IMG/VR virus record: IMGVR_UViG_2724679236_000008
DNA length: 64,000 bases
Origin: a virus
Taxonomy: Duplodnaviria > Heunggongvirae > Uroviricota > Caudoviricetes
Direction: 5' to 3' (one strand)
The notes under the pieces were generated by a model. The model made no database searches and was not told the DNA's origin. It saw only the letters and a program-made list of their open reading frames with translations. This document shows, in pieces, positions 2,979-62,861 of the stretch. The position numbers and the translations under genes were made by a program. The first letter of the stretch is position 1. Each line of letters begins with the position of its first letter.

Positions 2979-4540
2979 ATGAAAATGACAAGTATTCAAC
3001 AACGTGCAGAGCTTCATCGTCAAATCTGGCAAATTGCTAACGATGTCAGGGGTTCGGTCGATGGATGGGATTTTAAGCAATACGTTCTGGGCGCACTTTT
3101 CTACCGTTTTATCAGCGAAAATTTTTCCAGCTATATTGAAGCCGGTGATGACAGTATCTGTTATGCGAAACTGGATGACAGCGTAATTACTGATGACATT
3201 AAAGACGATGCCATCAAAACTAAAGGCTACTTCATCTACCCAAGTCAGCTTTTCTGCAACGTAGCTGCGAAAGCAAATACCAATGACAGACTGAATGCAG
3301 ATTTAAACAGTATCTTCGTTGCTATCGAAAGTTCTGCTTACGGTTACCCTTCAGAAGCTGACATCAAAGGTTTGTTTGCTGATTTCGATACCACCAGTAA
3401 CCGCCTGGGTAACACCGTTAAGGATAAAAATGCCCGCCTGGCTGCGGTTCTGAAAGGGGTTGAAGGGTTAAAACTTGGTGACTTCAACGAACATCAGATT
3501 GACCTGTTCGGCGATGCCTATGAGTTCCTGATTTCTAACTATGCGGCGAATGCTGGTAAGTCAGGCGGCGAGTTTTTTACACCGCAGCATGTCTCTAAGC
3601 TGATTGCACAACTGGCTATGCACGGGCAGACCCACGTTAACAAAATCTACGACCCAGCCGCAGGTTCCGGTTCGCTGTTGTTACAGGCGAAAAAGCAGTT
3701 TGATGACCATATCATCGAAGAAGGCTTTTTTGGTCAGGAGATCAACCATACGACCTATAACCTGGCGCGTATGAACATGTTTTTGCACAACATCAACTAC
3801 GACAAGTTTGATATCAAGCTGGGCAATACGCTGACTGAGCCGCACTTCAGAGATGAAAAACCGTTTGATGCCATCGTTTCTAACCCGCCATATTCGGTGA
3901 AATGGATTGGCAGTGATGACCCGACGCTGATTAACGATGAACGTTTTGCCCCTGCTGGCGTTCTGGCCCCAAATCAAAAGCTGACTTCGCCTTTGTACTA
4001 CATGCGCTGAACTATCTTTCTGCCAAAGGTCGTGCTGCGATTGTCTGCTTCCCGGGTATTTTTTACCGTGGCGGCGCAGAGCAGAAAATCCGTCAGTATC
4101 TGGTCGACAATAACTATGTCGAAACCGTGATTTCACTGGCACCGAATCTGTTCTTTGGCACCACTATTGCCGTAAACATTCTGGTGCTGTCTAAACATAA
4201 AACGGATACCAAAGTTCAGTTTATTGATGCCAGCGAGCTGTTTAAAAAAGAAACTAACAACAATACCCTGACCGATGCCCATATCGAACAGATTATGCAG
4301 GTATTTGCCAGCAAGGAAGATGTTGCTCATCTGGCGAAATCTGTTGCGTTTGAGACTGTTGTCGCGAATGACTATAACCTGTCGGTGAGCAGCTATGTGG
4401 AAGCGAAAGATACTCGCGAAATTATCGATATCGCTGAGTTGAATGCAGAGCTGAAAAGCACCGTCGGCAAAATCGACCAGTTGCGCAAAGATATTGATGC
4501 GATTGTGGCTGAAATTGAAGGCTGCGAGGTGCAGAAATGA
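2979..4540 (+). pseudogene. hsdM: type I R-M methyltransferase subunit HsdM, interrupted by a 1-nt frameshift at the CCCCAAA tract (3967-3973)
   Basis: Frame 1 (2979-4010) has N6-adenine MTase motifs including NPPYSVKW, then stops. Frame at -1 continues [63 protein letters not shown] to 4540. Combined length about 520 aa. Confidence 0.85.
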
Positions 4541-5730
4541 GCGAGATGAGTTATCTGGAAAAATTGCTGGATGGGGTTGAGGTTGAGTGGTTGCCATTGG
4601 GGGAAGTCTCAGCCTTAAGAAGAGGCAGAGTTATGTCAAAGGGATATTTAACTGAAAATTTTGGCCCATATCCTGTCTATAGCTCTCAAACTGCAAATAA
4701 TGGGAAAATAGGTTCTATCAATACCTTCGATTTTGATGGCGAATATATAAGCTGGACAACAGATGGCGCAAATGCAGGCACTGTGTTCTATCGAACAGGT
4801 AAATTTTCAATAACTAATGTTTGCGGCCTGATTACATTAAAAAGTAAATACCCATTAATCTACAAATTTCTGTTTTACTGGCTAACAATAGAAGCCAAAA
4901 AACATGTTTACTCAGGAATGGGAAACCCCAAGTTAATGAGTCATCAGGTTGAAAATATACCTGTACCAATCCCCTGCCCGGATAATCCGGAAAAATCCCT
5001 TGCCATCCAGTCTGAAATCGTCCGGATTCTGGATACATTTACTGCAATTACCGCTGAGCTTAACATGCGTAAAAAACAGTACAACTACTATCGCGACCGG
5101 TTATTTAGTTTTGGTGCCCACGATGTTAAACGTCTGAAATTAGGAGAGCTATGTGTAATTGGAGACGGTTTGCATGGTACTCCAGAATATGACGCCAACG
5201 GTGATTATTTCTTTATCAATGGAAACAATTTAGGCTATCAAAAAATATCATTTAACGATAACACAAAAAAGGTTAATGATTCTATGTTTAAAAAACACGG
5301 AATTCATTTTGACCCAATAAATACTGTTTTCCTGTCAATTAATGGCACAATTGGAAATGTTTCCTTTTACAATAATGAGAAGATCGTACTCGGTAAGTCT
5401 GTGGCCTATTTTAAAATTAAATCACCTGAACTCCACACTAGATATCTTTTCTATTTCCTGCAAACCAATTACGCAAAACAGTATTTTGAAAATCAAAAAA
5501 CAGGTTCAACTATTAAAAACTTAGGTTTAAAATCGTTGAGAGCATTTGAAATACCTATCCCATCATACGATGAACAACTTTATATCGTCGCCACGATGGA
5601 TAAATTTTACAACCTGACAAACTCCATCACCGAAGGCCTTCCGCGTGAAATCGAGTTGCGCCAGAAACAATACGAATACTACCGTGATTTACTTTTCAGT
5701 TTCCCGAAACCTGAAACTGTCAGTAATTAA
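4537..5730 (+). CDS. hsdS: type I R-M specificity subunit HsdS, 397 aa, type IC-like
   Basis: Two AT-rich variable target-recognition regions separated by conserved TAEL...[15 protein letters not shown] and C-terminal [26 protein letters not shown] overlap with hsdM end. Confidence 0.9.
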
Positions 5731-5851
5731 TTGACCATTGCTACCGATCGGGCCACCTTAACACCCGGTCAGTATATAGACTATTTTTTACGCGCCGGAA
5801 GTCACTCTTAACGCCCTTCCGGCTCTTGCCAGGCGGCACAAAGGATGCGCT

Positions 5852-8800
5852 ATGACTCATCAAACACACACCATTGCTGAATCCAATAACTTTATCGTCC
5901 TTGATAAGTACATCAAAGCTGAGCAAACAAGCGACAGCTACCAGAGCGAATCGGACCTGGAACGTGAACTGATTCAGGACCTGCGGAATCAGGGTTATGA
6001 ATTTATTTCCGTAAAATCACAGTCGGCAATGCTGTCCAATGTTCGGGAACAGCTTCAGAGCCTCAATGGTGTGATGTTTAATGACAGCGAGTGGCGGCGC
6101 TTCACGGAGCAGTATCTGGACAACCCCAGCGATGGTATTCTGGATAAAACCCGTAAAATCCATATCGACTATATCTGCGACTTTATTTTTGACGACGGGC
6201 GACTTGAGAACATCTATTTGATAGATAAAAAGAATCTCATGCGCAATAAGGTGCAGATTATCCAGCAGTTTGAACAGACGGGTTCTCATGCTAACCGTTA
6301 TGACGTCACGATCCTGGTTAATGGTTTACCGCTGGTGCAAATCGAACTAAAAAAACGCGGGGTGGCGATTCGTGAGGCTTTCAACCAGATACATCGTTAC
6401 AGTAAAGAGAGTTTTAACAGCGAAAATTCCCTGTTTAAGTATCTGCAGCTGTTCGTCATTTCCAACGGCACCGATACCCGTTATTTTGCCAACACGACAA
6501 AGCGCGATAAAAACAGTTTTGACTTCACCATGAACTGGGCGAAATCAGACAACACGCTGATTAAAGACCTCAAAGACTTTACCGCCACCTTTTTCCAGAA
6601 ACATACTCTGCTGAATGTTCTGGTGAACTACAGCGTGTTTGACAGTAGTCAGACACTACTGGTGATGCGACCGTACCAGATTGCTGCCACCGAGCGCATT
6701 CTGTGGAAAATTAAGAGTTCCTTTACAGCGAAGAACTGGTCAAAACCGGAAAGCGGTGGGTATATCTGGCACACTACCGGTTCTGGTAAAACCCTCACCA
6801 GCTTTAAAGCCGCGCGTCTGGCAACAGAGCTGGACTTTATTGATAAAGTCTTCTTTGTGGTCGACAGGAAAGACCTCGATTACCAGACCATGAAGGAATA
6901 TCAGCGTTTTTCGCCAGACAGCGTCAACGGCTCGGAAAATACCGCAGGCCTTAAACGAAATCTGGATAAGGACGATAACAAAATTATCGTCACTACTATT
7001 CAGAAACTCAATAACCTGATGAAAGCAGAAAGCGACCTGCCTGTATATAATCAGCAAGTGGTGTTTATATTTGATGAATGCCACCGCAGCCAGTTTGGAG
7101 AAGCGCAGAAAAACCTGAAGAAGAAATTCAAACGCTATTATCAGTTTGGTTTTACCGGCACCCCTATTTTCCCGGAAAACGCCTTAGGCTCAGAAACAAC
7201 CGCCAGCGTATTTGGTCGTGAATTGCATTCGTATGTAATTACCGATGCGATTCGTGACGAAAAAGTGCTCAAATTCAAGGTGGACTACAACGATGTGCGG
7301 CCACAGTTTAAGTCTTTAGAGACAGAAACTGACGAGAAAAAACTAAGTGCGGCTGAAAATCAGCAGGCGTTTCTTCATCCCATGCGTATTCAGGAAATCA
7401 CGCAATATATTCTGAATAATTTCCGCCAGAAAACCCACCGTACCTTCCCTGGCTCAAAAGGTTTTAATGCTATGTTGGCAGTAAGCAGCGTGGATGCTGC
7501 AAAAGCCTATTATGCGACGTTTAAACGGTTACAAGAGGAAGCAGCTAATAAATCGGCTACCTATAAACCGCTGCGTGTTGCGACAATCTTCTCCTTTGCC
7601 GCTAATGAAGAACAAAATGCCATTGGTGAAATTTCCGATGAAACTTTTGATACCAGCGCAATGGACAGCAGTGCTAAAGAGTTTCTGGACGCTGCAATTC
7701 GTGAATATAACAGCCATTTTAAAACTAACTTCAGCACCGACAGTAACGGTTTTCAGAACTACTATCGTGATTTAGCCCAGCGGGTTAAAAATCAGGATAT
7801 CGATCTGCTAATTGTCGTGGGGATGTTTTTAACCGGCTTCGATGCTCCAACATTGAACACGCTATTCGTCGATAAAAACTTGCGTTTTCACGGCCTGATG
7901 CAGGCATTTTCCCGCACCAACCGTATTTATGATGCAACTAAAACCTTCGGTAATATCGTCACTTTCCGGGATCTGGAACGCTCAACTATTGATGCCATAA
8001 CGCTGTTTGGTGACAAAAACACCAAAAATGTGGTGTTAGAAAAGAGTTATACAGAGTATATGGAAGGCTTTACTGATGCTGCTACTGGTGAAGCTAAACG
8101 CGGCTTCATGACAGTAGTTTCAGAACTGGAACAACGGTTCCCTGACCCTACCAGTATTGAAAGTGAAAAAGAGAAGAAAGACTTCGTTAAACTGTTTGGC
8201 GAATACCTGCGTGCCGAGAACATCCTGCAAAACTATGATGAATTTGCCACGCTAAAAGCCCTGCAACGAATCGATCTTAGCGATCCTGTTGCGGTAGAAA
8301 AATTCAAAGCAGAACATTATGTGGATGATGAAAAGTTCGCTGAATTGCAAACAATTCGTCTCCCTGCTGATCGCAAGATTCAGGATTATCGTTCTGCCTA
8401 TAACGATATTCGCGACTGGCAGCGCCGTGAGAAAGAAGCTGAGAAAAAAGAGAAATCAACCACTGACTGGGATGACGTAGTTTTTGAGGTCGATTTGCTG
8501 AAGTCTCAGGAAATAAACCTGGATTATATCCTTGGACTGATTTTCGAACACAACAGACAAAATAAAGGCAAGGGCGAAATGATCGAAGAGGTCAAACGCT
8601 TAATTCGTTCAAGCCTAGGGAACCGTGCTAAAGAGGGCCTGGTGGTCGATTTTATTCAGCAAACGAACCTGGATGATTTACCGGACAAAGCCAGCATCAT
8701 TGACGCATTCTTTACGTTTGCTCAACGCGAACAGCAACGTGAAGCAGAAGCATTGATAAAAGAAGAAAATCTCAATGAAGATGCAGCAAAACGCTATATT

Positions 8801-8968
8801 CGCACGTCTTTAAAACGCGAATATGCCACCGAAAATGGCACAGAATTAAACGAAACATTACCAAAACTTAGTCCGTTGAATCCGCAATATAAAACGAAAA
8901 AACAGGCAGTTTTCCAGAAAATCGTCTCGTTTATTGAGAAGTTTAAAGGCGTAGGCGGAAAAATATAG
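5852..8968 (+). CDS. hsdR: type I restriction endonuclease subunit HsdR, 1038 aa
   Basis: Superfamily-2 helicase motifs ([15 protein letters not shown]) with N-terminal nuclease region; length typical of type IC HsdR. Confidence 0.9.
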
Positions 8969-9134: not shown

Positions 9135-9216
9135 ATTTTCAGCTCCTGTGATTGATTGGATACATGCCGCGCCTTGCGGCATGTTTTTATTTTCACTTTC
9201 TCTGTTTTGAAAATCA

Positions 9217-23294: not shown

Positions 23295-23555
23295 TTATTA
23301 ACCTCATTACTGGTTGGGAAATAAGGTTGCGGTGCCGGGTGCCTCCCGGTGTCCTTTGGCTGGTTATCCACCGTGGACGGGGAAAAGGAGAAATTAATGG
23401 ACTGATATAACCATTTCCCCGCGTGCGCTTAGCCGCATTCACCGCAATGGTAAGAGCACTTGGCTGGCTGGGCGGCGATGACGCCTGTACGCATTTGGTG
23501 ATCCGGTTCTGCTTCCGGCATTCGCTTAATTAGCCAAATACTCTTAACGTTGCGC

Positions 23556-23642
23556 TGGTGGAGAGTAATGGAATCGAACCATCATCGCTTGCGCAATGGG
23601 ACGGTTTTCAAGACCGTTTGAGCACCATGCTCCCTACTCTCC
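23556..23642 (-). tRNA. class II tRNA (long variable arm), anticodon UGA (Ser by anticodon)
   Basis: Hand fold: acceptor GGAGAGT/ACTCTCC, anticodon arm ACGGT-CTTGAAA-ACCGT, 17-nt variable arm, T-arm GATGG-TTCGATT-CCATT, CCA encoded; identity not confirmed. Confidence 0.65.
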
Positions 23643-23873
23643 GGCCGTTGTGGTGACCGGTACTGAATCTCCGGCATACGGTGCAGCCAATTAGGACTAC
23701 GGACGATCACCGCTCGCGAAAGGGAAGATTTGCGGCCGCATTTCCCTAACATCCAAGAAAGCTATCGCATCAGTCTGCGAATCCACCACAACGGAAAGAG
23801 CATTTATGGCTCGCATCGCGGGAAAAAGCCCACGGTAGAGAGTCGAACTCTACAAATACTCTTACCTGTTGTG

Positions 23874-23930
23874 CTGGTGCCGGTTAACGGATTCGAACCG
23901 CTGAGCTACACCATCACTTGCCGGGTACGT
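23874..23930 (-). other. tRNA-like 3' fragment (T-arm plus acceptor plus CCA) without a foldable 5' half
   Basis: ...GTAGCTCAGCGGTTCGAATCCGTTAACCGGCACCA; no complementary 5' acceptor strand or anticodon arm found; second T-arm-like hairpin nearby at 23835-23860. Confidence 0.3.
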
Positions 23931-24570
23931 CTCCGGCGAGGGCTTCCACCTCCGTATGCTTTTCGGCGCACCGCGCCCTGGCTGCAATTCGGTAACAGGG
24001 GATGCATAACCCTGGCTTCCAGCGTGATTAGCGCTTTCAGCATGACGGGATATACCCGTGATTGAAACTTTAATGGACCAATGTGAAACACATATGCTGT
24101 TACGCCGAATGAAAAAGGACGTAACAGGAAAGGGCACTGACCAAAAGATGGCCCCCTTCTCGCTCATCTGGTTAATCGAACCAGCGCCCTTGCCTGTTAT
24201 GCCTCCCCGTTCCCTAATACACAGACGGGGACACTCTGCGGTCGATTTTTTGACGGGGGACGACTCATACCCCGTGGCGTCAGGCTTCTTAGGCCGCTAC
24301 CATCATCAGATCATCGTTTGCATTTACTTTAATGGTCAGTTTCTAAACCGCCGCAAAGTCGCTAACCATGACGAAAACCCTGAAAAAACGCCCACCCGAA
24401 GATGGGCAAACTGGAAGCTCGTAACGCACTTCGGTGTTGCCACTTAGGCGCATGGTCAACCTGGCAACTCGGTGGTTTGTCTGGGAGGACTAGACCCAGC
24501 CATGCTTACCGCCGCGCCTGTCGCGGCTAACAGCTAAATCGCTCTATAAATCACGATTCATTGAGGCAAT

Positions 24571-24598
24571 ATTACACTAATAAATTTATTAGAGCAAT
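24571..24598. promoter_or_regulatory. two overlapping C1-operator 17-mers in opposite orientation (15/17 and 17/17)
   Basis: attacactaataaattt (24571-24587) and aaatttattagagcaat (24582-24598), overlapping the methyltransferase stop codon; likely promoter for leftward tRNA-tci-ban transcription. Confidence 0.6.
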
Positions 24599-26853
24599 AC
24601 AGCTATAACGTCATGAGCAACACCACGAGTGTCCCCCTTACAAGACACAGAACGTCTGGCAAAAAGAGGTTCCACTCTGAAGCCACTGTCCTGATAAAGC
24701 TCTCTGATGTTTGGCGCGCCACTGTTAGTAATGAGAACCTTTGCACCTCGGCGATGGGCATCCGTCAACAGAGACACCAGGCGTTTTTGCTCTTCAAACT
24801 TAAAGTCATGACCGGAATAGTTCGTGAACCCCTCTGTATTGGGGAGCGGTTCATACGGCGGATCGCAAAAGATGACATCTCCTTCTCCGGCACCTTCAAT
24901 CACCGCTGCAAAATCACCGCATACAAACTCAGACCGCCCTTCCGCACCGATGAAGGCTTCCATCTCCTGTAATGGGAAATACGGAGTTTTATACTTCCCA
25001 TAACCAACATTAAACTCACCGGCCTGGTTGTAACGCGTCAATCCGTTAAAACAATGTCGGTTCAGGAACAAAAACGCTGCTGCACGATGTAAATCATCAT
25101 AGGCTTGTTTGTTAAACGCATTCCGTACTGCCAGGTATCCATCCTGTGTGTTGTAGTCCTGGAAAAACCGATGCGCCAGAGTGATAAGTGAATGTCCCTC
25201 ACGTTGCAGAGTCCTGTAAAAGTTAATCAGGTCGGCATTCACATCATTTAGCAGATTTTCTTGATATCCGGCATTTATGAAGACAGCTCCGCCACCAACG
25301 AAAGGTTCAATCAGGCGCTTTCCGTCAGGTAAATGCCTAAAGATTTGTTCCAGAACACCAAATTTTCCACCGACCCATTTAAATATGGGACGGTCAAATT
25401 CTGCCGTTAGCTTAACTTTCCGTTCTGTTGCTTCATGATTTTCTGCCTGCTGATATGCAGCCTTAATAATCCGCTCACCAATCCATCGCATTACTGGTAT
25501 CGCCATACTATTGCCGATCGCTTTGTAACGCGGTCCGTCAGCTGAAAGCATCGCGGCCTCTTCTTCGCTTAAATCTGGATAGTGATTGCGCAGATATGCC
25601 AGTTCATCTGAATTAACTTTTTTACGCTTTTCCGTAGGGATCAACGTATACCCATCAGGAAAACCTTGGAGTCTTTCGCATTCGACAGGGGTAAGGCGGC
25701 GGACAGCTACTTCTGCGTTTCTTACTTCATAGCAAACGGCTGTTGGATTTTGAGCCATTAGAGATGGTGAAGTATTCTTAGTTGCCGCATGTTGTGTACC
25801 ACTCATACGCTCAGGAAAAGCCAATGCAACAAGATGCTCATGGCTTTCTTGCTCACGCGCCCGCAATGTACCATGTCCTTCTGACCAAAAACCTGCTCCT
25901 GTGCTGCTAAAAACGGCAAGATCAGTAGCATCTTTAAAGTCTCTTGCCTTTACTGTCGATGCAGTTTCATCGTCAATATATTCCCCAAAAGCAGCCATCC
26001 TGAAAGCGTTTACGGCTTTCGTTGATTTCATTCTGGGGTTCCCATCAGCGTGTAGGCATGGATTTATATTTTCACCACTGATTGCAGCGCCATTTGCAAT
26101 AATGGCGGAAGCGATTTCCTTCTTTTTTCGGCTCGGCGCAATATTCCGGCGCACGCCTTCGAACTCAAAAAGTACCGTTGCGGGATCGAGGTCTGTTCGA
26201 GCACTTGCGACAACAAACACGCGTCGGCGTCGTTGTGCCACTCCGAAGTATTGGGCATCAAGGATTCTCCAGGCCACCTTTCGCTGCGGTCCATAAATAC
26301 AACCACACTGCGGCCACTTTGGAGCATGGCAACCGGTTTTGACATCCCACCGCCAGAACGCGTTACTTTTTCGTGATTCAGGTCGCTCACCTGGTTCGAA
26401 TGGCGCATCTTCTCCAGCCAATCCGGCAAGGAAACATCCGAAGGCGTTATCTGCCGATGACAAGACTCCTGGGACATTTTCCCAGACGATAACGGCTGGT
26501 TTGAGAAATGACTCAGCCCGTTTGTCGTCAATTGCATTTGCAAGCTCCACATACTTTAAAGTTAGCGCGCCACGCTCATCATCAAGCCCACCACGTAATC
26601 CCGCGATACTGAATGCCTGGCAAGGTGTTCCCCCGACGAGCACATCGGGGGATTCAATTTCCCCAGCCCGGACTTTTTTGGCAAGTTTTGTCATATCGCC
26701 AAGGTTGGCGACATGGGGCCAGCGGTGCGCAAGAACGGCAGATGGAAAAGGCTCGATTTCAGCAAACCAAGCCGGACGCATACCCAACGGCTCCCAAGCA
26801 ATGCTCGCGGCTTCAATTCCACTGCAAACAGATCCATAGCACAGCTCTTTCAC
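24589..26853 (-). CDS. dmt: fused DNA methyltransferase: N-terminal C5-cytosine MTase plus C-terminal Dam-like N6-adenine MTase, 754 aa
   Basis: C5 motifs [12 protein letters not shown] and ENVPGV in N-terminal half; Dam-family FVGGGAVF and DPPY in C-terminal half. Confidence 0.85.
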
Positions 26854-30315: not shown

Positions 30316-30330
30316 TACCCTTCCTTCCAA

Positions 30331-30352
30331 CCGGCTATGTTGGCCGGTTTTT
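30331..30352 (+). terminator. rho-independent terminator
   Basis: ccggctatgttggccgg followed by ttttt. Confidence 0.55.
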
Positions 30353-30354
30353 CA

Positions 30355-30440
30355 CTTATCCACATTATCCACTGGGTAGATCCAATAATTAGGTCCATAC
30401 AGATCCCAATTAGATCCATATAGATCCCTGATCGTTGCAG
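30355..30440. promoter_or_regulatory. plasmid origin oriR elements: tandem DnaA boxes and GATC-containing heptamer repeats
   Basis: TTATCCACA (30357-30365) and TTATCCACT (30366-30374); repeated (t/c)agatcc units and tgatcg at 30377-30435. Confidence 0.7.
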
Positions 30441-39816: not shown

Positions 39817-40413
39817 ATGGCTGTGATTCCAATGTCGTACTCCCCGGGCACTGTCGCTCGTCGATTTTCGATCCTGGACGGTGTAATCATCCAGGGTGTG
39901 CTTTACCAGATTATATGGGATTCCAAAACCCCATTTGCAGCCGTAATAGAAGCAGCGCCTTCTGTTATCGATGGTGATATGCGCCATAAGGTTGTCGCTA
40001 CTCTTGAACTTCAACGTCGCCCGCAGCTTGAAGGCGTACTGGTAAGGAAGTTCTGGGAGGATAGCGATGTTGCCCAGATTGAAGGTATCGTGGTTGATGG
40101 AACCGTCCGGGATGTCGGTTTAGCTACTTTTGTTTACGAAACCGTAGCCTCAAAAGCTGGTGTTGTTTTGCTCAGTGATAATGAGCAATACGAAGGTGGA
40201 AAAGCTCTTTGGCAACACATCGCCCGTCGCTCTTCCGAGCTAAAAGTGTTTATCCTCGACACCGATGCCGCTCAGTATTACCCGTTTGACGGCGAACGTG
40301 TTTGCTATGACGGGGTAAGTATTCCTGAATCCGAGATATGGAGTGAACACCCAGATCGAAGTAAGCATGGGGTTGTTCTGGTTGCTGAATCCATAACTGG
40401 AAAGGCGGCATAG
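39817..40413 (+). CDS. hypothetical protein, 198 aa
   Basis: ATG at 39817 after AAGGGGGA; track ORF starts 12 codons upstream. Confidence 0.5.
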   Translation: MAVIPMSYSPGTVARRFSILDGVIIQGVLYQIIWDSKTPFAAVIEAAPSVIDGDMRHKVVATLELQRRPQLEGVLVRKFWEDSDVAQIEGIVVDGTVRDVGLATFVYETVASKAGVVLLSDNEQYEGGKALWQHIARRSSELKVFILDTDAAQYYPFDGERVCYDGVSIPESEIWSEHPDRSKHGVVLVAESITGKAA

Positions 40414-40595
40414 CAGTAAAAAATTCCTTGCTCCTTGACAGAGGAGAGGATTAATCTAAGTACGCTAAGCATAGGTATGGCCCCGGTTAATGTTAAGCGT
40501 TGTGCGGGACGCATAATGTTTACTGGGGCTTTCTTCTATCTGCTTTTCGGGTAATACCTGAAGCTGATAGCCTCAAGCACACCGCAGCGGGTGTA

Positions 40596-55204: not shown

Positions 55205-58123
55205 ATGAATGACGTTACAGTTGTCACATCGGTTACTTACCCATCACCCGAGTCGTTGGCTCTGGTGGCTGATGTGCAATACCACGAACCATATCTGTCA
55301 GCCGCGCTAAACCGAAAATTCAGGGGAATTGTTGACCCGGGATTTTATGCTGGTTTCTTGCCTAAGCCTGGCGGTGGGATGAACCTGTTAATCACCTCAG
55401 TGGATGGTGATAAAACCGCTGGCGCGGCGTCAGTGGATATTGGAGAATTCTACCAAGTAACTATTCAGCACCGTAAGGATATTTCTCTTGCACTTAGCGC
55501 AGGTAAGAAATATGCAATTGTGCTGAAGGGAAGATACCTCCTTGGAGAGGATACCTATCAGGTTAATACCGCGTCACATATTCATGCGGCTGAATTTATT
55601 GCCAGAACTTATACCGATTCATATCAGTTAGGAGATGGGGAGTTACTTGTTTGTACGGTAAATATCCCTGCTGGCGTATCTGCCATTACCCAGGAGATGA
55701 TTGATACATCTGAGCGTATCAACCGCACGATCGGCATTGAAATATCAGACTCTGTAACCAGCACCAGAAGTGATGTTGCGGCAAGTTCGCTGGCAGTTAA
55801 AAAAGCCTACGATCTGGCGAAAAGTAAGTATACGGCGCAGGATGCAAGCACAACGCAAAAGGGATTAGTTCAGCTCAGTAGCACAATTGACAGCGACAGC
55901 GAAACAATGGCGGCCACCCCTAAAGCCGTTAAGTCTGTAAAAGAACTGGCTGATACCAAAGCGCCAATAGAAAGCCCGAATCTGACAGGGAAACCAGGTG
56001 CCCCGACTGCGGCCCCAGGTACAAACAGTAATCAGATCGCGAATACAGCATTTGTTCATGCAGCTATAAGCGCGCTTATCAACGGCGCCCCGGGAACACT
56101 GGATACGCTGAAAGAAATTGCTGCTGCTATCAACAACGATCCGAAGTTCAGCACGACTATCAATAATGCGCTGAATCTTAAGGCTCCTTTAGCAAGCCCT
56201 GCATTCACCGGAATACCTACCGCGCCTACAGCACCGCAGGGTACAAATAATACACAGATAGCAACGACTGCTTATGTTAGGGCGGCTATTTCCGCATTGG
56301 TCGGTTCATCTCCTGAAGCTCTGGATACTCTGAATGAGTTAGCTGCGGCGCTTGGCAATGACCCGAACTTTGCGACAACCATGACCAATGCACTGGCAGG
56401 GAAACAGCCTCTTGATGCAACCTTAACCGCGCTCGCTGCCCTTGCGACTGGTGCAAATAAACTGCCTTATTTCACCGGTAAGGATACGGTAGCGCAGACT
56501 GATTTAACGTCAGTCGGTCGCGATATTCTGGCTAAAACAAGCACACTGGCCGTTATCCAATACCTTGGTTTAAGAGAACTTGGCACAAGCGGTGAAAAGA
56601 TCCCCCTGTTGAGCACGGCTAACACATGGAGTGCACGCCAGACTTTCAACGGTGGGATCACCGGGGCGCTGACAGGGAACGCCGACACCGCGACGAAATT
56701 AAAAACAGCACGGAAGATTAATAATGCCCCGTTTGACGGTTCAGCTGATATTAATATCAACACTCTGGTGTCGCGTGGTCGCGTAACGGCTCTGGAGGCG
56801 AATGCACAGGGAGCATCAGGGATTCAACTGTATGAGGCCTACAATAATGGCTATCCTTCTACCTATGGCAATGTGCTTCACCTTAAAGGTGCCACCGCTG
56901 CTGGCGAAGGTGAGTTATTCATTGGCTGGAGTGGCACGAGCGGTGCCCATGCGCCAGTACATATTCGTTCGCGGCGGGATACTGATTCTGCCAGCTGGTC
57001 AGAATGGGCACAAATTTATACGTCAAAAGACTCAGTTCCTGGTGTTAATACCAAAGGCAATCAAGACACGACAGGTAATGCTGCCACCGCCACAAGATTG
57101 CAGACGGCGCACACTATCAACGGCGTCTCGTTTGATGGTTCTGAAGATATTGAACTAACGGCGGAAGATTTAAATCTCGAACAAACAGTAGAGTTAGCTG
57201 CTGGAGCATTGCAGAAAAACCAGAACGGCGCAGATATTCCAAACAAAGATAAATTTACGCAAACAATAGGTGCTTGCCGCTCTTTTCATAGCTCTATCAG
57301 CACAGGTGCAGGAAACTGGACGACGGCGCAATTTATTGAATGGCTGGAATCTCAGTGGGCCTTCAATCATCCATACTGGCTGTGTAAATGCTCATGGTCA
57401 TACGGCAATAATAAAATTATTACTGACACCGGATGTGGACTTATTCACCTTGCGGGTTGCGTTATTGAAGTTATGGGCAATAAAGGCGCCATGACCATTC
57501 GTATAACCACACCGAGTACCTCTAGCAGTGGTGGCACCACTAATGCGCAATTTATATATATTAACCACGGTTCAGAGTATTTACCTGGCTGGCGACGTGA
57601 CTACAACACGAAAAATCAGCAGGCCGCTTTTGCTTTAGGGCAAACAGGAAGCACTGTCGGAAATGATAAAGCTGTTGGCTGGAACTGGAATAGCGGGGTA
57701 TATAACGCAAATATTGGTGGCGCATCGACATTAATCCTCCACTTCAATATGAACGCGGGTAGCTGCCCTGCTGTACAGTTCCGCGTAAATTATAAGAACG
57801 GTGGTATTTATTATCGTTCAGCGCGTGATGGTTATGGCTTCGAGGCTGACTGGTCAGAGTTTTACACCACAACCCGAAAACCTTCAGCGGCAGATGTTGG
57901 GGCATATACTAAAGCGGAATGTAATACGCGGTTTATTACAGGTATTCGATTAGGTACAAAATCATCAGCGCAAACATGGAATGGTCCTGGCTGGGGCGAT
58001 AAATCAGGTTACGTTGTTACAGGTTCCGTTAACTCAAACAAAGATGAACTTATTGATACAACACAGGCAAGGCCAGTGCAATATTGTATCAATGGCACCT
58101 GGTATAATGCGGGAAGTATTTAA
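55205..58123 (+). CDS. tail fibre protein S (constant part plus currently joined variable part Sv), about 972 aa
   Basis: ATG 55205 after AAGGA; internal tandem repeats (NTAFVHAAISALINGAPGTLDTLKE / TTAYVRAAISALVGSSPEALDTLNE); cix site at 56553-56578 inside the gene. Confidence 0.8.
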   Translation: MNDVTVVTSVTYPSPESLALVADVQYHEPYLSAALNRKFRGIVDPGFYAGFLPKPGGGMNLLITSVDGDKTAGAASVDIGEFYQVTIQHRKDISLALSAGKKYAIVLKGRYLLGEDTYQVNTASHIHAAEFIARTYTDSYQLGDGELLVCTVNIPAGVSAITQEMIDTSERINRTIGIEISDSVTSTRSDVAASSLAVKKAYDLAKSKYTAQDASTTQKGLVQLSSTIDSDSETMAATPKAVKSVKELADTKAPIESPNLTGKPGAPTAAPGTNSNQIANTAFVHAAISALINGAPGTLDTLKEIAAAINNDPKFSTTINNALNLKAPLASPAFTGIPTAPTAPQGTNNTQIATTAYVRAAISALVGSSPEALDTLNELAAALGNDPNFATTMTNALAGKQPLDATLTALAALATGANKLPYFTGKDTVAQTDLTSVGRDILAKTSTLAVIQYLGLRELGTSGEKIPLLSTANTWSARQTFNGGITGALTGNADTATKLKTARKINNAPFDGSADININTLVSRGRVTALEANAQGASGIQLYEAYNNGYPSTYGNVLHLKGATAAGEGELFIGWSGTSGAHAPVHIRSRRDTDSASWSEWAQIYTSKDSVPGVNTKGNQDTTGNAATATRLQTAHTINGVSFDGSEDIELTAEDLNLEQTVELAAGALQKNQNGADIPNKDKFTQTIGACRSFHSSISTGAGNWTTAQFIEWLESQWAFNHPYWLCKCSWSYGNNKIITDTGCGLIHLAGCVIEVMGNKGAMTIRITTPSTSSSGGTTNAQFIYINHGSEYLPGWRRDYNTKNQQAAFALGQTGSTVGNDKAVGWNWNSGVYNANIGGASTLILHFNMNAGSCPAVQFRVNYKNGGIYYRSARDGYGFEADWSEFYTTTRKPSAADVGAYTKAECNTRFITGIRLGTKSSAQTWNGPGWGDKSGYVVTGSVNSNKDELIDTTQARPVQYCINGTWYNAGSI
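56553..56578. other. cixL-like recombination site (Cin/Gin-type crossover site)
   Basis: ttatccaataccttggtttaagagaa; flanking sequence repeated in inverted orientation ending at 61050. Confidence 0.55.
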
Positions 58124-59101: not shown

Positions 59102-61006
59102 TTAGTAACCTATAGCTGTCCAGTACATATTGCCGTTACCCTCACTGTTAAATTTTGTTCCGGTTCTGGATAGTGAGTTAACAGCAATGCTGTAGTCAAA
59201 ACGACCATGCGCGTTAGTGATTGTTATGCTTGTACAGGCAGAGGGAAAAGCTATTGGAAATGTTAACCCTGCTCCAGCATTAGAAATATATCCCCACTGC
59301 GTAATAATTCCTGTAGAGACATCTTTATGCCAGCCATTCGCCGCTTTGAACGCGGTATTTTTAGCCTGATAACGGGAGTCAAAATTACCGTAATCTGACG
59401 GGTTAACACGCCCACTAATATTCAGTAGTTTATTACTTTGAATACTTCCACTCGTAAAGCGGAAAACATGGGCATTGTTAGCATAAACATCAAGAACACC
59501 ATCGCCATTTTGCTTTAAACCAGTATCACCATCACCCAGAACAATGGAGTTACCTCCTAAAGCGTTTGCCGTTCTTATACCAAGTGCGCCGTTCAACTGG
59601 CCGCCAGATAACGGCAATGCCCCAACTTCAGCGGCAGTAGGTCTAATATGCGAACTGTAAATTACATAAACCGTTCCATCAGTCAGGCCTGTCGGTTTAT
59701 TCGCTGTATAAGTTGGTGATGTATGAATTTGTACAGTGGCATCCTTTGTATAATCCCACTGGATATTAACACCCGTGGCGTAATTACCTATTTCTACATA
59801 AATGTCATAGGTATCACCGGATGTATTCACCCATGCAAAATTAGTAAATCCTGATGATGTCCGCCGCCATAATGCACCAGTGATGCCTTTAGGGTTTCCA
59901 TTGCCAGCACGTAAAACAAGTTCAGATATACCCGCCTGCTGCGGGGAACCGACATTATATCCAGCACCACCAATCAGGCTTACATAAACCACGGAACTGG
60001 CCTGTGGCATAGTTACAGTCGCCAGTTTGAACCATCCTGCACCGCCATTAAAGGATATGGTTGTTGAATTTGTTGTCCCGATGTTGCGCAGGAATAATTT
60101 TTTATCAGGAATATCTGCACCGTTCTGGTTTTTCTGCAATGCTCCAGCAGCTAACTCTACTGTTTGTTCGAGATTTAAATCTTCCGCCGTTAGTTCAATG
60201 TCTTCAGAACCATCAAACGAGACGCCGTTGATAGTACATGCTGTCTGCAACTTGGTCGCTGTCGCTGCATTACCGGTAGTGTCTTGATTACCTTTTGTAT
60301 TCACACCAGGCAAATCTATATCGGCTGAACCATCAAAGGATACACCACCTATGTTTATTGAACTTGCTAATTTCGTTGCTGTTGCTGCATTTCCTGAAAG
60401 GCTTGAAACAAACTGATGTGAGCAGTAATAACCACGTCCATTTTTAAAATCCAGAATGGTTTGAGTATTTGTACTTTCTGCTACTGGATCTGTGGCCCCC
60501 CACTTATAGGTGGCTTGACCAACGGTATAGTCAGTAGTTGGAACAATTACGTTCAAGCCCTCCTCAGCAAATATCTTGATAGGAAATGCTCTGGCTTCAA
60601 CGTAAAATACACTACACAAATCGTCATCTTTCACACTTGAAATAATCGAGTGTATAGCTCGCTCAGCAGTAGAATATATTGAGAAAAAACCAGCCGCATA
60701 TGAACCGCGATCAGACCAACCGCCAGGCATAACAAACCCATTAAATTCACAATTATTCATGGCGTATCCGCCAGCTGAGGAATAAGTAGTTATCACAACT
60801 CGTGAGGCTAATTCATCGGTACTGCCTCCAGATCGGCGAAAGACTATAGGATACCACTTACCGCTTACTGCATTTGCAGGCGCTGAAAAAGTGTATTTTC
60901 GCATCCCTTTTTTATTGTCTATTTCGCTTTTGCTGTAAACGTCCAGATCTTTAGGAGTCNNNNNNNNNNAAGTCTGGCGTGCACTCCATGTGTTAGCCGT
61001 GCTCAA
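59102..61006 (-). CDS. alternative tail-fibre variable segment Sv' (no independent start; joined to S constant part after inversion); contains assembly gap
   Basis: N-terminal [11 protein letters not shown] matches S residues at 56600-56640; internal [18 protein letters not shown]...[24 protein letters not shown] block matches S at 57040-57240; 10 N at 60960-60969. Confidence 0.6.
60960..60969. other. assembly gap (10 N) inside the inverted repeat
   Basis: Run of n characters. Confidence 1.
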
Positions 61007-61062: not shown

Positions 61063-61614
61063 AAATGATGACGCAGGAAACTTTTTATAAAGCGTGGAAA
61101 CAGCAACATCATAGATGATTGCAACCTGCTTACGGGGGATGCCATTCTCCAGCAATCGACGCATTTGCTGCCATGTTTCTTCCGGGTATTTAGGTCTGCG
61201 GCCTCCTATTCGACCTTCTGCGCGAGCTGCATCAAGTCCAGCGCGTGTACGTTCAACGATAAGCTCGCGTTCCATTTCTGCCAGTGCCCCCATTACGTGA
61301 AAGAAAAAGCGCCCCATTGGTGTACTGGTGTCGATGGAGTCAGTGAGACTCCGGAAGTTAATTCCTCTGTCACGTAGCTCTTCCACCAGCACAACCAAGT
61401 GACGCATGCTGCGCCCAAGGCGATCTAACTTCCATACGATCAGGGTGTCACCTCTGGAAAGCATACGCAAAACCTTTTTTAGCCCTGGGCGTTCAGCCTT
61501 TTTGCCGCTCGCCTTATCCTCAAAAATTAGCTCACATCCTGCGCTTTCAAGAGCGTTTCGTTGTAAAGCAGTGTTTTGTTCATTTGTTGATACGCGTACA
61601 TAGCCTATTAGCAT
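61054..61614 (-). CDS. cin: site-specific DNA invertase Cin (serine recombinase, Hin/Gin family), 186 aa
   Basis: MLIGYVRVSTNEQ catalytic serine region, resolvase core and C-terminal HTH. Confidence 0.95.
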   Translation of the reverse strand: MLIGYVRVSTNEQNTALQRNALESAGCELIFEDKASGKKAERPGLKKVLRMLSRGDTLIVWKLDRLGRSMRHLVVLVEELRDRGINFRSLTDSIDTSTPMGRFFFHVMGALAEMERELIVERTRAGLDAARAEGRIGGRRPKYPEETWQQMRRLLENGIPRKQVAIIYDVAVSTLYKKFPASSFQS

Positions 61615-61742
61615 ATTTTCTGCTCACTATCGTTATTTATAGCAAGCTGCGGATTTTAATTAACAAAAAACCAGTATGTGTGGAAATCACAAAGTACATA
61701 CCGTTTCCCAATGAGATTTAATTCACTATTGAGGAAATAGTT

Positions 61743-62024
61743 ATGTTTGATTTCACAATAATGCTCCTCTCCATCCTTGGCGGGGTGCATTCGTTTCTGA
61801 ATGGGGTTCGTGAAAAACGTTACGAAGCGTCATGCAGGCAATTGATGGCCGAGTGTATTGCTGCCGTACTTGCAGGCTTTATAGGCATGTATTTCGCGGA
61901 ATATAAGGGTATGGATGAAAGTCTTCAGAATTGCGTGACTATTATTTGCAGCATCAATAACAGGCTCATTCTTGAAAAGTTACAAAGGATTATCGATTCG
62001 TACCTCAGTAGAAATGCCTCTTAA
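61743..62024 (+). CDS. small membrane protein (holin/antiholin-like), 93 aa
   Basis: Two hydrophobic helices; charged C-terminus. Confidence 0.4.
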   Translation: MFDFTIMLLSILGGVHSFLNGVREKRYEASCRQLMAECIAAVLAGFIGMYFAEYKGMDESLQNCVTIICSINNRLILEKLQRIIDSYLSRNAS

Positions 62025-62091
62025 GCAACAAATGACCGGTTGAGAAGTTACTTTGCATACCATTACCTCCTGACAACGTAGGAGGGAACTT

Positions 62092-62421
62092 GTGCTTGAC
62101 ACACAGGAATTAGCTCCAGTTGCTATTGCGCTCCTGCTTTCAGTAATTGGTGGGATAGGCACGTTCCTGATGGATGTCCGAGACGGTCGCCAGTCTGGCA
62201 ATTTGTTGGGATTGGTTACGGAGATCTTTGTTGCAGTGACAGCTGGCGCGGTGGCGTACCTATTGGGGCAACACGAGGGCTGGGAGTTATCAATTACGTA
62301 CTTAATGGTAACGATAGCCAGCAATAACGGTCATGAGGTGATTTCAGGGATGAAACGAGTGAATATCGATAGCATTCTGAATGTTCTTACAAGTTTGGTG
62401 AAAAAGGGAGGCGGGAAATGA
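62092..62421 (+). CDS. holin-like membrane protein, 109 aa
   Basis: Two or three TM helices (VAIALLLSVIGGIGTFL, IFVAVTAGAVAYLLG) and basic C-terminal tail. Confidence 0.45.
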   Translation: MLDTQELAPVAIALLLSVIGGIGTFLMDVRDGRQSGNLLGLVTEIFVAVTAGAVAYLLGQHEGWELSITYLMVTIASNNGHEVISGMKRVNIDSILNVLTSLVKKGGGK

Positions 62422-62861
62422 TTGGCTGGGGTGTATGCGCTCTTGCGGCAGCCTTAGCTGATCGCTATTTGCTAAAACGCAAGGACATCACGAATTTAGA
62501 GCTTGGTGATGTGGAAATTAAACCGGGATTTATCCGGGTGCCGTTCAAATATCGGTCTAAATTCCCGTTTTTGCGCGGTGCAACGGTCAGATATTGGATC
62601 CGTGATGTTCAGAAGCCGACGACAGTGATTGAAGGCGAACAACGTTGCCTGACGTCGGCTGAACAGGGCGAAAACAGTGAATGGTTGTACATACCCACTG
62701 AATATATGGGTAAAGGAGAACGACTGTGGCATTTCAACGTCATGGTTACGCACGGCGACTCGTTCATTAACCCGTTGTATCGGATTTTCCCTGTTACTCA
62801 GCAAATCCGCAGAAGTTACGTAATAAATCTCGCACAGGATGTGTCAGATGACGAAAAATAA
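62418..62861 (+). CDS. hypothetical protein, 147 aa
   Basis: Overlapping start with previous gene. Confidence 0.5.
   Translation: MIGWGVCALAAALADRYLLKRKDITNLELGDVEIKPGFIRVPFKYRSKFPFLRGATVRYWIRDVQKPTTVIEGEQRCLTSAEQGENSEWLYIPTEYMGKGERLWHFNVMVTHGDSFINPLYRIFPVTQQIRRSYVINLAQDVSDDEK

Follow-up and report, generated by a model that had tools for sequence, protein, structure and literature searches.

A one-base deletion in hsdM of an EcoR124-family restriction-modification cassette on a P1-like phage-plasmid of Escherichia albertii

An hsd cassette beside phd/doc

The window, by which we mean the whole 64,000-nt stretch of viral DNA that was analysed, carries at 2979–8968 on the plus strand the three genes of a type I restriction-modification (R-M) cassette, in the order hsdM, hsdS and hsdR (Table 1). 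The cassette adjoins phd/doc, from which it is divergently oriented, and the genes around it are those of a P1 backbone: lpa, pacAB, c1, repA/parAB, the tail fibres and the C4 RNA. The best-matching record for the window is pEA4_97, a 97-kb IncY plasmid of Escherichia albertii BIA_4. The IncY typing of pEA4_97 in PLSDB and its annotated backbone genes (IncY repA/parAB, phd/doc, lpa, pacAB, c1 and a tail-fibre invertible segment with its recombinase) place the element among the P1-like (IncY) phage-plasmids. The exact HsdS protein is deposited under three NCBI accessions, all from E. albertii, and in both E. coli and E. albertii many P1-like plasmids have an intact cassette of the same family at the same position. 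The cassette is an EcoR124-family type IC hsdM-hsdS-hsdR system on a P1-like IncY phage-plasmid of E. albertii.

Table 1 Features of the hsd cassette in the window
Feature	Position	Strand	Basis
hsdM, whole (split)	2979–4540	+	two frames; ORFs and Pfam
hsdM 5' fragment, original frame	2979–4010	+	HsdM_N and first half of N6_Mtase
C4 tract, site of the 1-nt deletion	3967–3970	+	comparison with intact homologues (C5 in all examined)
hsdM 3' portion, -1 frame	3971–4540	+	second half of N6_Mtase and C-terminal region
-1 slippery motifs, zero frame	C_CCA_AAU 3968–3974; A_AAG 3977–3980	+	motif match
hsdS, intact, 397 aa	4537–5730	+	ORF and Pfam; ATG overlaps the hsdM stop (ATGA 4537–4540)
Promoter-like site between hsdS and hsdR	5758–5787	+	consensus match only, 9/12
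hsdR, intact, 1038 aa	5852–8968	+	ORF, Pfam and motifs
Terminator-like hairpin, then T run, 3' of hsdR	9162–9184	+	hairpin with T run

Other features of the element were recorded alongside the cassette. Three RNA elements scored above the Rfam gathering score, all on the minus strand: a sok antitoxin RNA of a hok/sok-type module (40409–40582), and the P1 C4 antisense RNA with its a1/b1 target (44653–44738 and 44806–44858). A 754-aa fused methyltransferase (24589–26853, minus strand) combines an N-terminal part that resembles C5-cytosine methyltransferases with a Dam-like C-terminal part. It is annotated in pEA4_97 as a Dam-family protein and resembles P1 Dmt; the gene is intact and is a predicted source of methylation on the same plasmid that is independent of the R-M cassette. 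The adjoining stretch of about 1.3 kb (23300–24590) is poor in open reading frames (ORFs). ARAGORN predicts a tRNA-Ser(tga) there (23556–23642, minus strand), where the Rfam tRNA model scores below its gathering score; a tRNA-Met at 22519–22594 (minus strand) is confirmed by both ARAGORN and Rfam. The PLSDB gene table of pEA4_97, which omits RNA genes and pseudogenes, does not contain PS033_RS23980 and RS23995 in the ORF-poor stretch. The pEA4_97 record also has three icd-like/antirepressor (KilAC) gene pairs (12722–13974, 56320–57629 and 61300–62618 of the record), and carries a fimbrial usher/chaperone operon and gldA, which are unusual baggage for a P1-like element.

The missing base in hsdM

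When hsdM is read from the ATG at 2979, frame 0 ends at a TGA at 4008–4010 and encodes 343 aa, the 12 residues that follow Pro331 being out of frame. The -1 frame, in which the codon for Lys332 is the AAA at 3971–3973, is open to a TGA at 4538–4540, and the two frames overlap at 3941–4007. The Pfam N6_Mtase profile is divided between them, positions 2–160 of the profile matching in the first frame and positions 158–310 in the second. Because the two halves meet cleanly, we attribute the arrangement to a clean 1-nt frameshift within one gene. The first-pass annotation, made from the sequence of the window, had proposed such a frameshift at a CCCCAAA tract at 3960–3980. Our analysis confirms it and places the break at 3967–3973, where four C (3967–3970) are followed by three A (3971–3973). 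The 5' fragment retains motif I (AAGSG, residues 227–231) and motif IV (NPPY, residues 302–305). An independent start for the 3' portion was considered and rejected: the -1 frame contains no ATG, GTG or TTG before the GTG at 4127, which would yield just a 137-aa C-terminal piece, so that no plausible independent start exists.

The annotation had also pointed to the closest hsdM homologues as a means of checking the tract, and this comparison identifies the missing base. The site reads GGCCCCAAATC in the window and GGCCCCCAAATC in every intact relative examined; that is, GGCGTTCTGG-CCCC-AAATC in the window and GGCGTTCTGG-CCCCC-AAATC in the relatives. Over a longer flank the window has GGCGTTCTGG-CCCC-AAATCAAAAGC, where the E. 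coli CT02 plasmid has GGCGTTCTGG-CCCCC-AAATCAAAAGC. Five C are likewise present in the plasmid of E. albertii RM10705 and in two further E. coli plasmids (MS 145-7 being among the intact relatives). With C5 in the intact relatives and C4 in the window, the base lost from hsdM is evidently one C of a C5 run and not an A. The earlier suggestion that a single inserted A restores a continuous HsdM of about 520 aa is thus right as to the ORF and wrong as to the base: insertion of C or of A gives the same Ala-Pro-Lys and the same full-length protein.

With the C restored, HsdM is 518 aa long from the second ATG and 520 aa from 2979, and the repaired ORF contains no further stop or indel. Compared with the CT02 hsdM it has 7 synonymous and 4 non-synonymous codon differences, and the protein is identical to EcoR124II HsdM (7bst_D) at 512 of 518 positions. 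Because this match runs from end to end, the split is no chance pattern.

HsdS and HsdR

The two genes downstream are, as the annotation had stated, uninterrupted, and both have the expected Pfam domains. In HsdS, Methylase_S matches twice, and the conserved N-terminal, central and C-terminal regions align to the solved EcoR124 subunit (7bst_A). The number of 12-bp TAEL repeats in type IC systems sets the length of the spacer in the recognition site. The window HsdS has a single TAEL unit (at about 5035–5061), where the solved EcoR124 HsdS and the HsdS of CT02, RM10705 and MS 145-7 have two (TAELTAEL). The spacer that this HsdS specifies may therefore be unusually short, or the protein may be impaired. 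When the window gene (4537–5730) was compared with its counterpart in the fetched CT02 stretch (L001, 9560–10762), the C-terminal half of the protein, from NMRKKQY at the second target recognition domain (TRD2) onward, was identical, and TRD1 was unrelated. This has the appearance of clear domain shuffling, by which a new specificity would have been created.

HsdR has all of the nuclease residues (D151, E165 and K167), the Walker A motif GSGKT (310–314) and DECH (408–411). Its Pfam matches are HSDR_N, SWI2_SNF2/ResIII, a T1R_D3-like domain and EcoR124_C, and it aligns to EcoR124I HsdR (2w00_A) with 2,289 bits over residues 1–1038. The site upstream of hsdR, a match to consensus only, is a candidate for a separate hsdR promoter of the kind found in type IC systems. 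The hsdS start codon overlaps the hsdM stop codon as ATGA, which implies translational coupling of hsdS to full-length hsdM.

Predicted consequences of the deletion

We consider it very probable that hsdM in this type IC cassette beside phd/doc has become a pseudogene through a real 1-bp deletion that is passed on vertically (C5 to C4 at 3967–3970). The truncated HsdM is without the second half of the catalytic domain and without the C-terminal region; judging from type I architecture and the EcoR124 structures, the latter would be the part that holds HsdM on HsdS. In type I systems HsdM is a required part of the M2S1 methyltransferase and of the R2M2S1 endonuclease alike. The annotation's expectation that the system would neither methylate nor restrict follows from this, and the cassette should be r- m- unless a compatible type IC HsdM comes from elsewhere in the cell. 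The loss of both activities together is not harmful to the host, and a mutation of this kind can therefore persist. Termination 527 nt upstream of the coupled start codon would probably uncouple the translation of hsdS and lower HsdS synthesis, whereas the promoter-like site at 5758–5787, a consensus match only, may still drive hsdR.

With regard to the proviso concerning HsdM in trans, type I subunits are interchangeable within a family, which is how the families were defined. With hsdS and hsdR still intact on the plasmid, a near-identical type IC HsdM from the host might assemble with the plasmid HsdS and HsdR, and the plasmid would still add a specificity. Members of this hsdM family are frequent on chromosomes of Escherichia, with 1,096 chromosomal places in E. 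coli, and an HsdR of the same cluster is recorded on a 4.65-Mb contig of E. albertii. Against this, a second hsdM was found neither in the window nor in the remaining part of pEA4_97, and the supply of HsdS is probably reduced through the lost coupling. The divergence of hsdS and hsdR is zero, which gives no signal of selection in either direction. We judge such complementation unlikely. Distinctly unlikely, too, is the general proposition that the cassette is not dead, whether because slippage yields a trace of HsdM and hence an attenuated R-M system, or because hsdS and hsdR act with a chromosomal HsdM as a portable 'specificity plus nuclease' add-on.

The slippage part of this proposition rests on two motifs inside the overlap of the frames, C_CCA_AAU and A_AAG. 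A -1 slip at either one is in the direction needed and would give a full-length HsdM that differs by K332N alone or by K332N together with S333Q, so that the system would be attenuated rather than inactive. Both motifs fit the zero-frame patterns X_XXY_YYZ and Z_ZZN, respectively; in E. coli most heptamers of this kind slip measurably above background, and the best of the tetramers is A_AA.G (PMC4066793). The same study puts motifs without stimulators at about 2–10 times a background of 0.055%, classes AAU as a 'heterogeneous', poor-shifting A-site codon, and does not include C_CC.A_AA.U among the 18 motifs with an unstimulated efficiency of more than 0.1% (PMC4066793), so the expected efficiency here is low. 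Stimulation by a downstream RNA structure or by an upstream Shine-Dalgarno-like (SD-like) sequence was examined and rejected: the 100 nt downstream fold no better than shuffled sequences (z = -1.0), and 3941–3985 contains no GGAG, GAGG or AGGA. Since neither kind of stimulator was found, read-through should amount to a trace at most. The two-frame arrangement is also not conserved, the homologues being single continuous ORFs of 518 aa, which argues that nothing has been selected for recoding. Leaky recoding is thus, in our assessment, very unlikely.

Reproduction and stability of the C4 allele

A rival reading is that hsdM is in truth intact with C5 and that a sequencer or assembler dropped one C, and the first-pass annotation had listed sequencing error among its options. 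Homopolymer deletions are a common type of error on some platforms, and the window has a gap of 10 N at 60960–60969 (112 bp in pEA4_97, record positions 30328–30439), which marks it as a draft-stage scaffold, distinct from the complete record of pEA4_97. The gap falls in the region of the tail fibres and invertible segment, near the recombinase gene. That the window might be the pEA4_97 record itself was rejected on account of the gap, of 11 SNPs and of the fact that the window crosses the origin of that record.

The identical C4 allele is present in pEA4_97, a complete plasmid from a separate isolate (E. albertii BIA_4) that was independently assembled in another country. Over 61 kb the window and pEA4_97 differ at 11 internal SNPs, in addition to the first three bases of the window, and no SNP falls inside the 6-kb hsd cassette. 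The SNPs are at window positions 69, 910, 22372, 22455, 22950, 24599, 34503, 43273, 47549, 48034 and 59938; four of them cluster at 22.3–24.6 kb, in the tRNA-containing and ORF-poor region upstream of the dmt-like gene.

The allele is also present in de novo Logan assemblies of the read sets DRR017165, DRR017166 and DRR017167, which may not be three independent strains. Look-ups of exact proteins found the same HsdS, the 341-aa truncated HsdM and HsdR on contigs from the three sets. C4 was read directly in the fetched DNA of DRR017165 and DRR017166, and for DRR017167 it follows from an exact match to the truncated protein. Over up to 9.2 kb the fetched DNA is 100% identical to the window. The DRR017165 contig shares the allele of the window at SNP 910 and so belongs to the sub-lineage of the window and not to that of BIA_4.

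A run of four or five bases is short for a systematic error. In scaffold style the window resembles the Illumina/Platanus drafts of Ooka et al. 2015 (PMC4700944), and from this resemblance we infer a link; those E. albertii drafts were made with Illumina MiSeq. The shortness of the run, and the recovery of C4 in at least two projects and at least four assemblies, argue that C4 is not a sequencing or assembly artefact. This option of the annotation is effectively excluded by pEA4_97 and the three DRR assemblies, and we regard an artefact as extremely improbable.

The annotation had further raised on/off switching at a slippage-prone tract. In such a contingency locus, slipped-strand mispairing at the C/A homopolymer would reversibly switch the R-M system. 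The lesion does sit in a homopolymer, and some R-M genes of types I and III are known to be phase-variable in other bacteria. Contingency loci typically have roughly 7–8 or more repeat units, well above the C5 of the intact tract. Tract lengths were counted across 5,426 complete genomes of E. coli; the queries were short, so that each could seed only on a tract of its own length. With the common flank, the 34-mer with C5 was found at 1,081 places, and the C4 and C6 versions at 0 and 0. With the flank of the window itself, 205 records of complete E. coli genomes matched, and none of the 205 has C4.

In PLSDB, pEA4_97 is the sole record with C4. An exact 21-mer scan for the C4 allele gave no match in GTDB representative genomes or in IMG/VR. 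A single metagenome match to the 21-mer (L014) was dismissed as chance, having no other similarity to the window. Every member of the lineage that was found has C4, with no revertant, and the other broken copy of hsdM, that of plasmid pE102651_87, is broken at a different site that is not a repeat. The uniformity of tract length and this non-repeat break indicate that the tract is no hot spot; the lineage appears stably C4, and the tract does not look like one for phase variation. With an ancestral tract of C5, no C4 or C6 variants in E. coli and no revertants, reversible switching is hardly credible.

The remaining option of the annotation, a recently inactivated system, agrees with these results: the lesion is single, at least two sub-lineages of the plasmid have inherited it, and no other decay is seen. 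As the deletion is the sole defect, it is evolutionarily recent, and it is older than the 11-SNP split between the lineage of the window and pEA4_97. Locus tag PS033_RS23880, which lies between phd and hsdS, is missing from the PLSDB gene table of pEA4_97, a table that omits pseudogenes. This is consistent with RefSeq already flagging hsdM of pEA4_97 as a pseudogene.

In kind the lesion is not new; it is an ordinary inactivating indel in a known family and a known context. The practical consequence is that this plasmid lineage is best regarded as having no type I restriction and modification of its own, which is relevant to prediction of the plasmid methylome, of the barrier to incoming DNA and of the host range of the phage-plasmid, and has little bearing beyond these and annotation. 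The case may also serve as a worked example of how a real frameshift in a short homopolymer is told from a sequencing error and from a phase-variable tract, based on independent assemblies and on a population count of tract lengths.

Comparison with known systems

The best-characterised relatives are EcoR124I and EcoR124II of plasmid R124 (structures 7BST, 7BTO–7BTR and 2W00), with which the window cassette shares the gene order, near-identity of the repaired HsdM, an HsdR of the same length with the same nuclease and ATPase motifs, and the conserved regions of HsdS. It differs from them in its frameshifted hsdM, in the TRDs of HsdS, in its one TAEL unit in place of two, and in its setting, since EcoR124 is carried on a conjugative plasmid and the window cassette on a P1-like phage-plasmid.

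The closest intact homologue is the cassette of the CT02 plasmid (NZ_CP081699.1), whose hsdM and hsdR are 99.2% identical to those of the window at the DNA level and whose HsdS shares the TRD2 half. Both this cassette and that of p2RM10705 from E. albertii RM10705 occupy the same position, from phd/doc to the downstream P1 genes. Unlike the window, these two have the C5 tract and encode an unbroken HsdM of 518 aa, and they differ from it in TRD1 and in the number of TAEL units.

Plasmid pE102651_87 (NZ_CP189663.1) resembles the window in being P1-like and in having an hsdM annotated as frameshifted. There, in contrast, the 1-nt deletion in hsdM, at about codon 71 (GATGACATT to GATGA-ATT), is not in a homopolymer, and IS903B truncates hsdS (record positions 6007–7624); hsdR has been lost. 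By this comparison, its loss of the cassette is an event independent of the one described here. Other P1-like plasmids have insertions of ISEc68 or of IS3-family elements in the cassette, and decay of the hsd cargo module seems to be recurrent.

The window shares with the phase-variable type I and type III R-M genes of Haemophilus, Neisseria and Helicobacter a methylase frameshift at a homopolymer. It is unlike those loci in that its tract is not long enough, does not vary in length among more than 1,200 homologues, and has one fixed length in the lineage.
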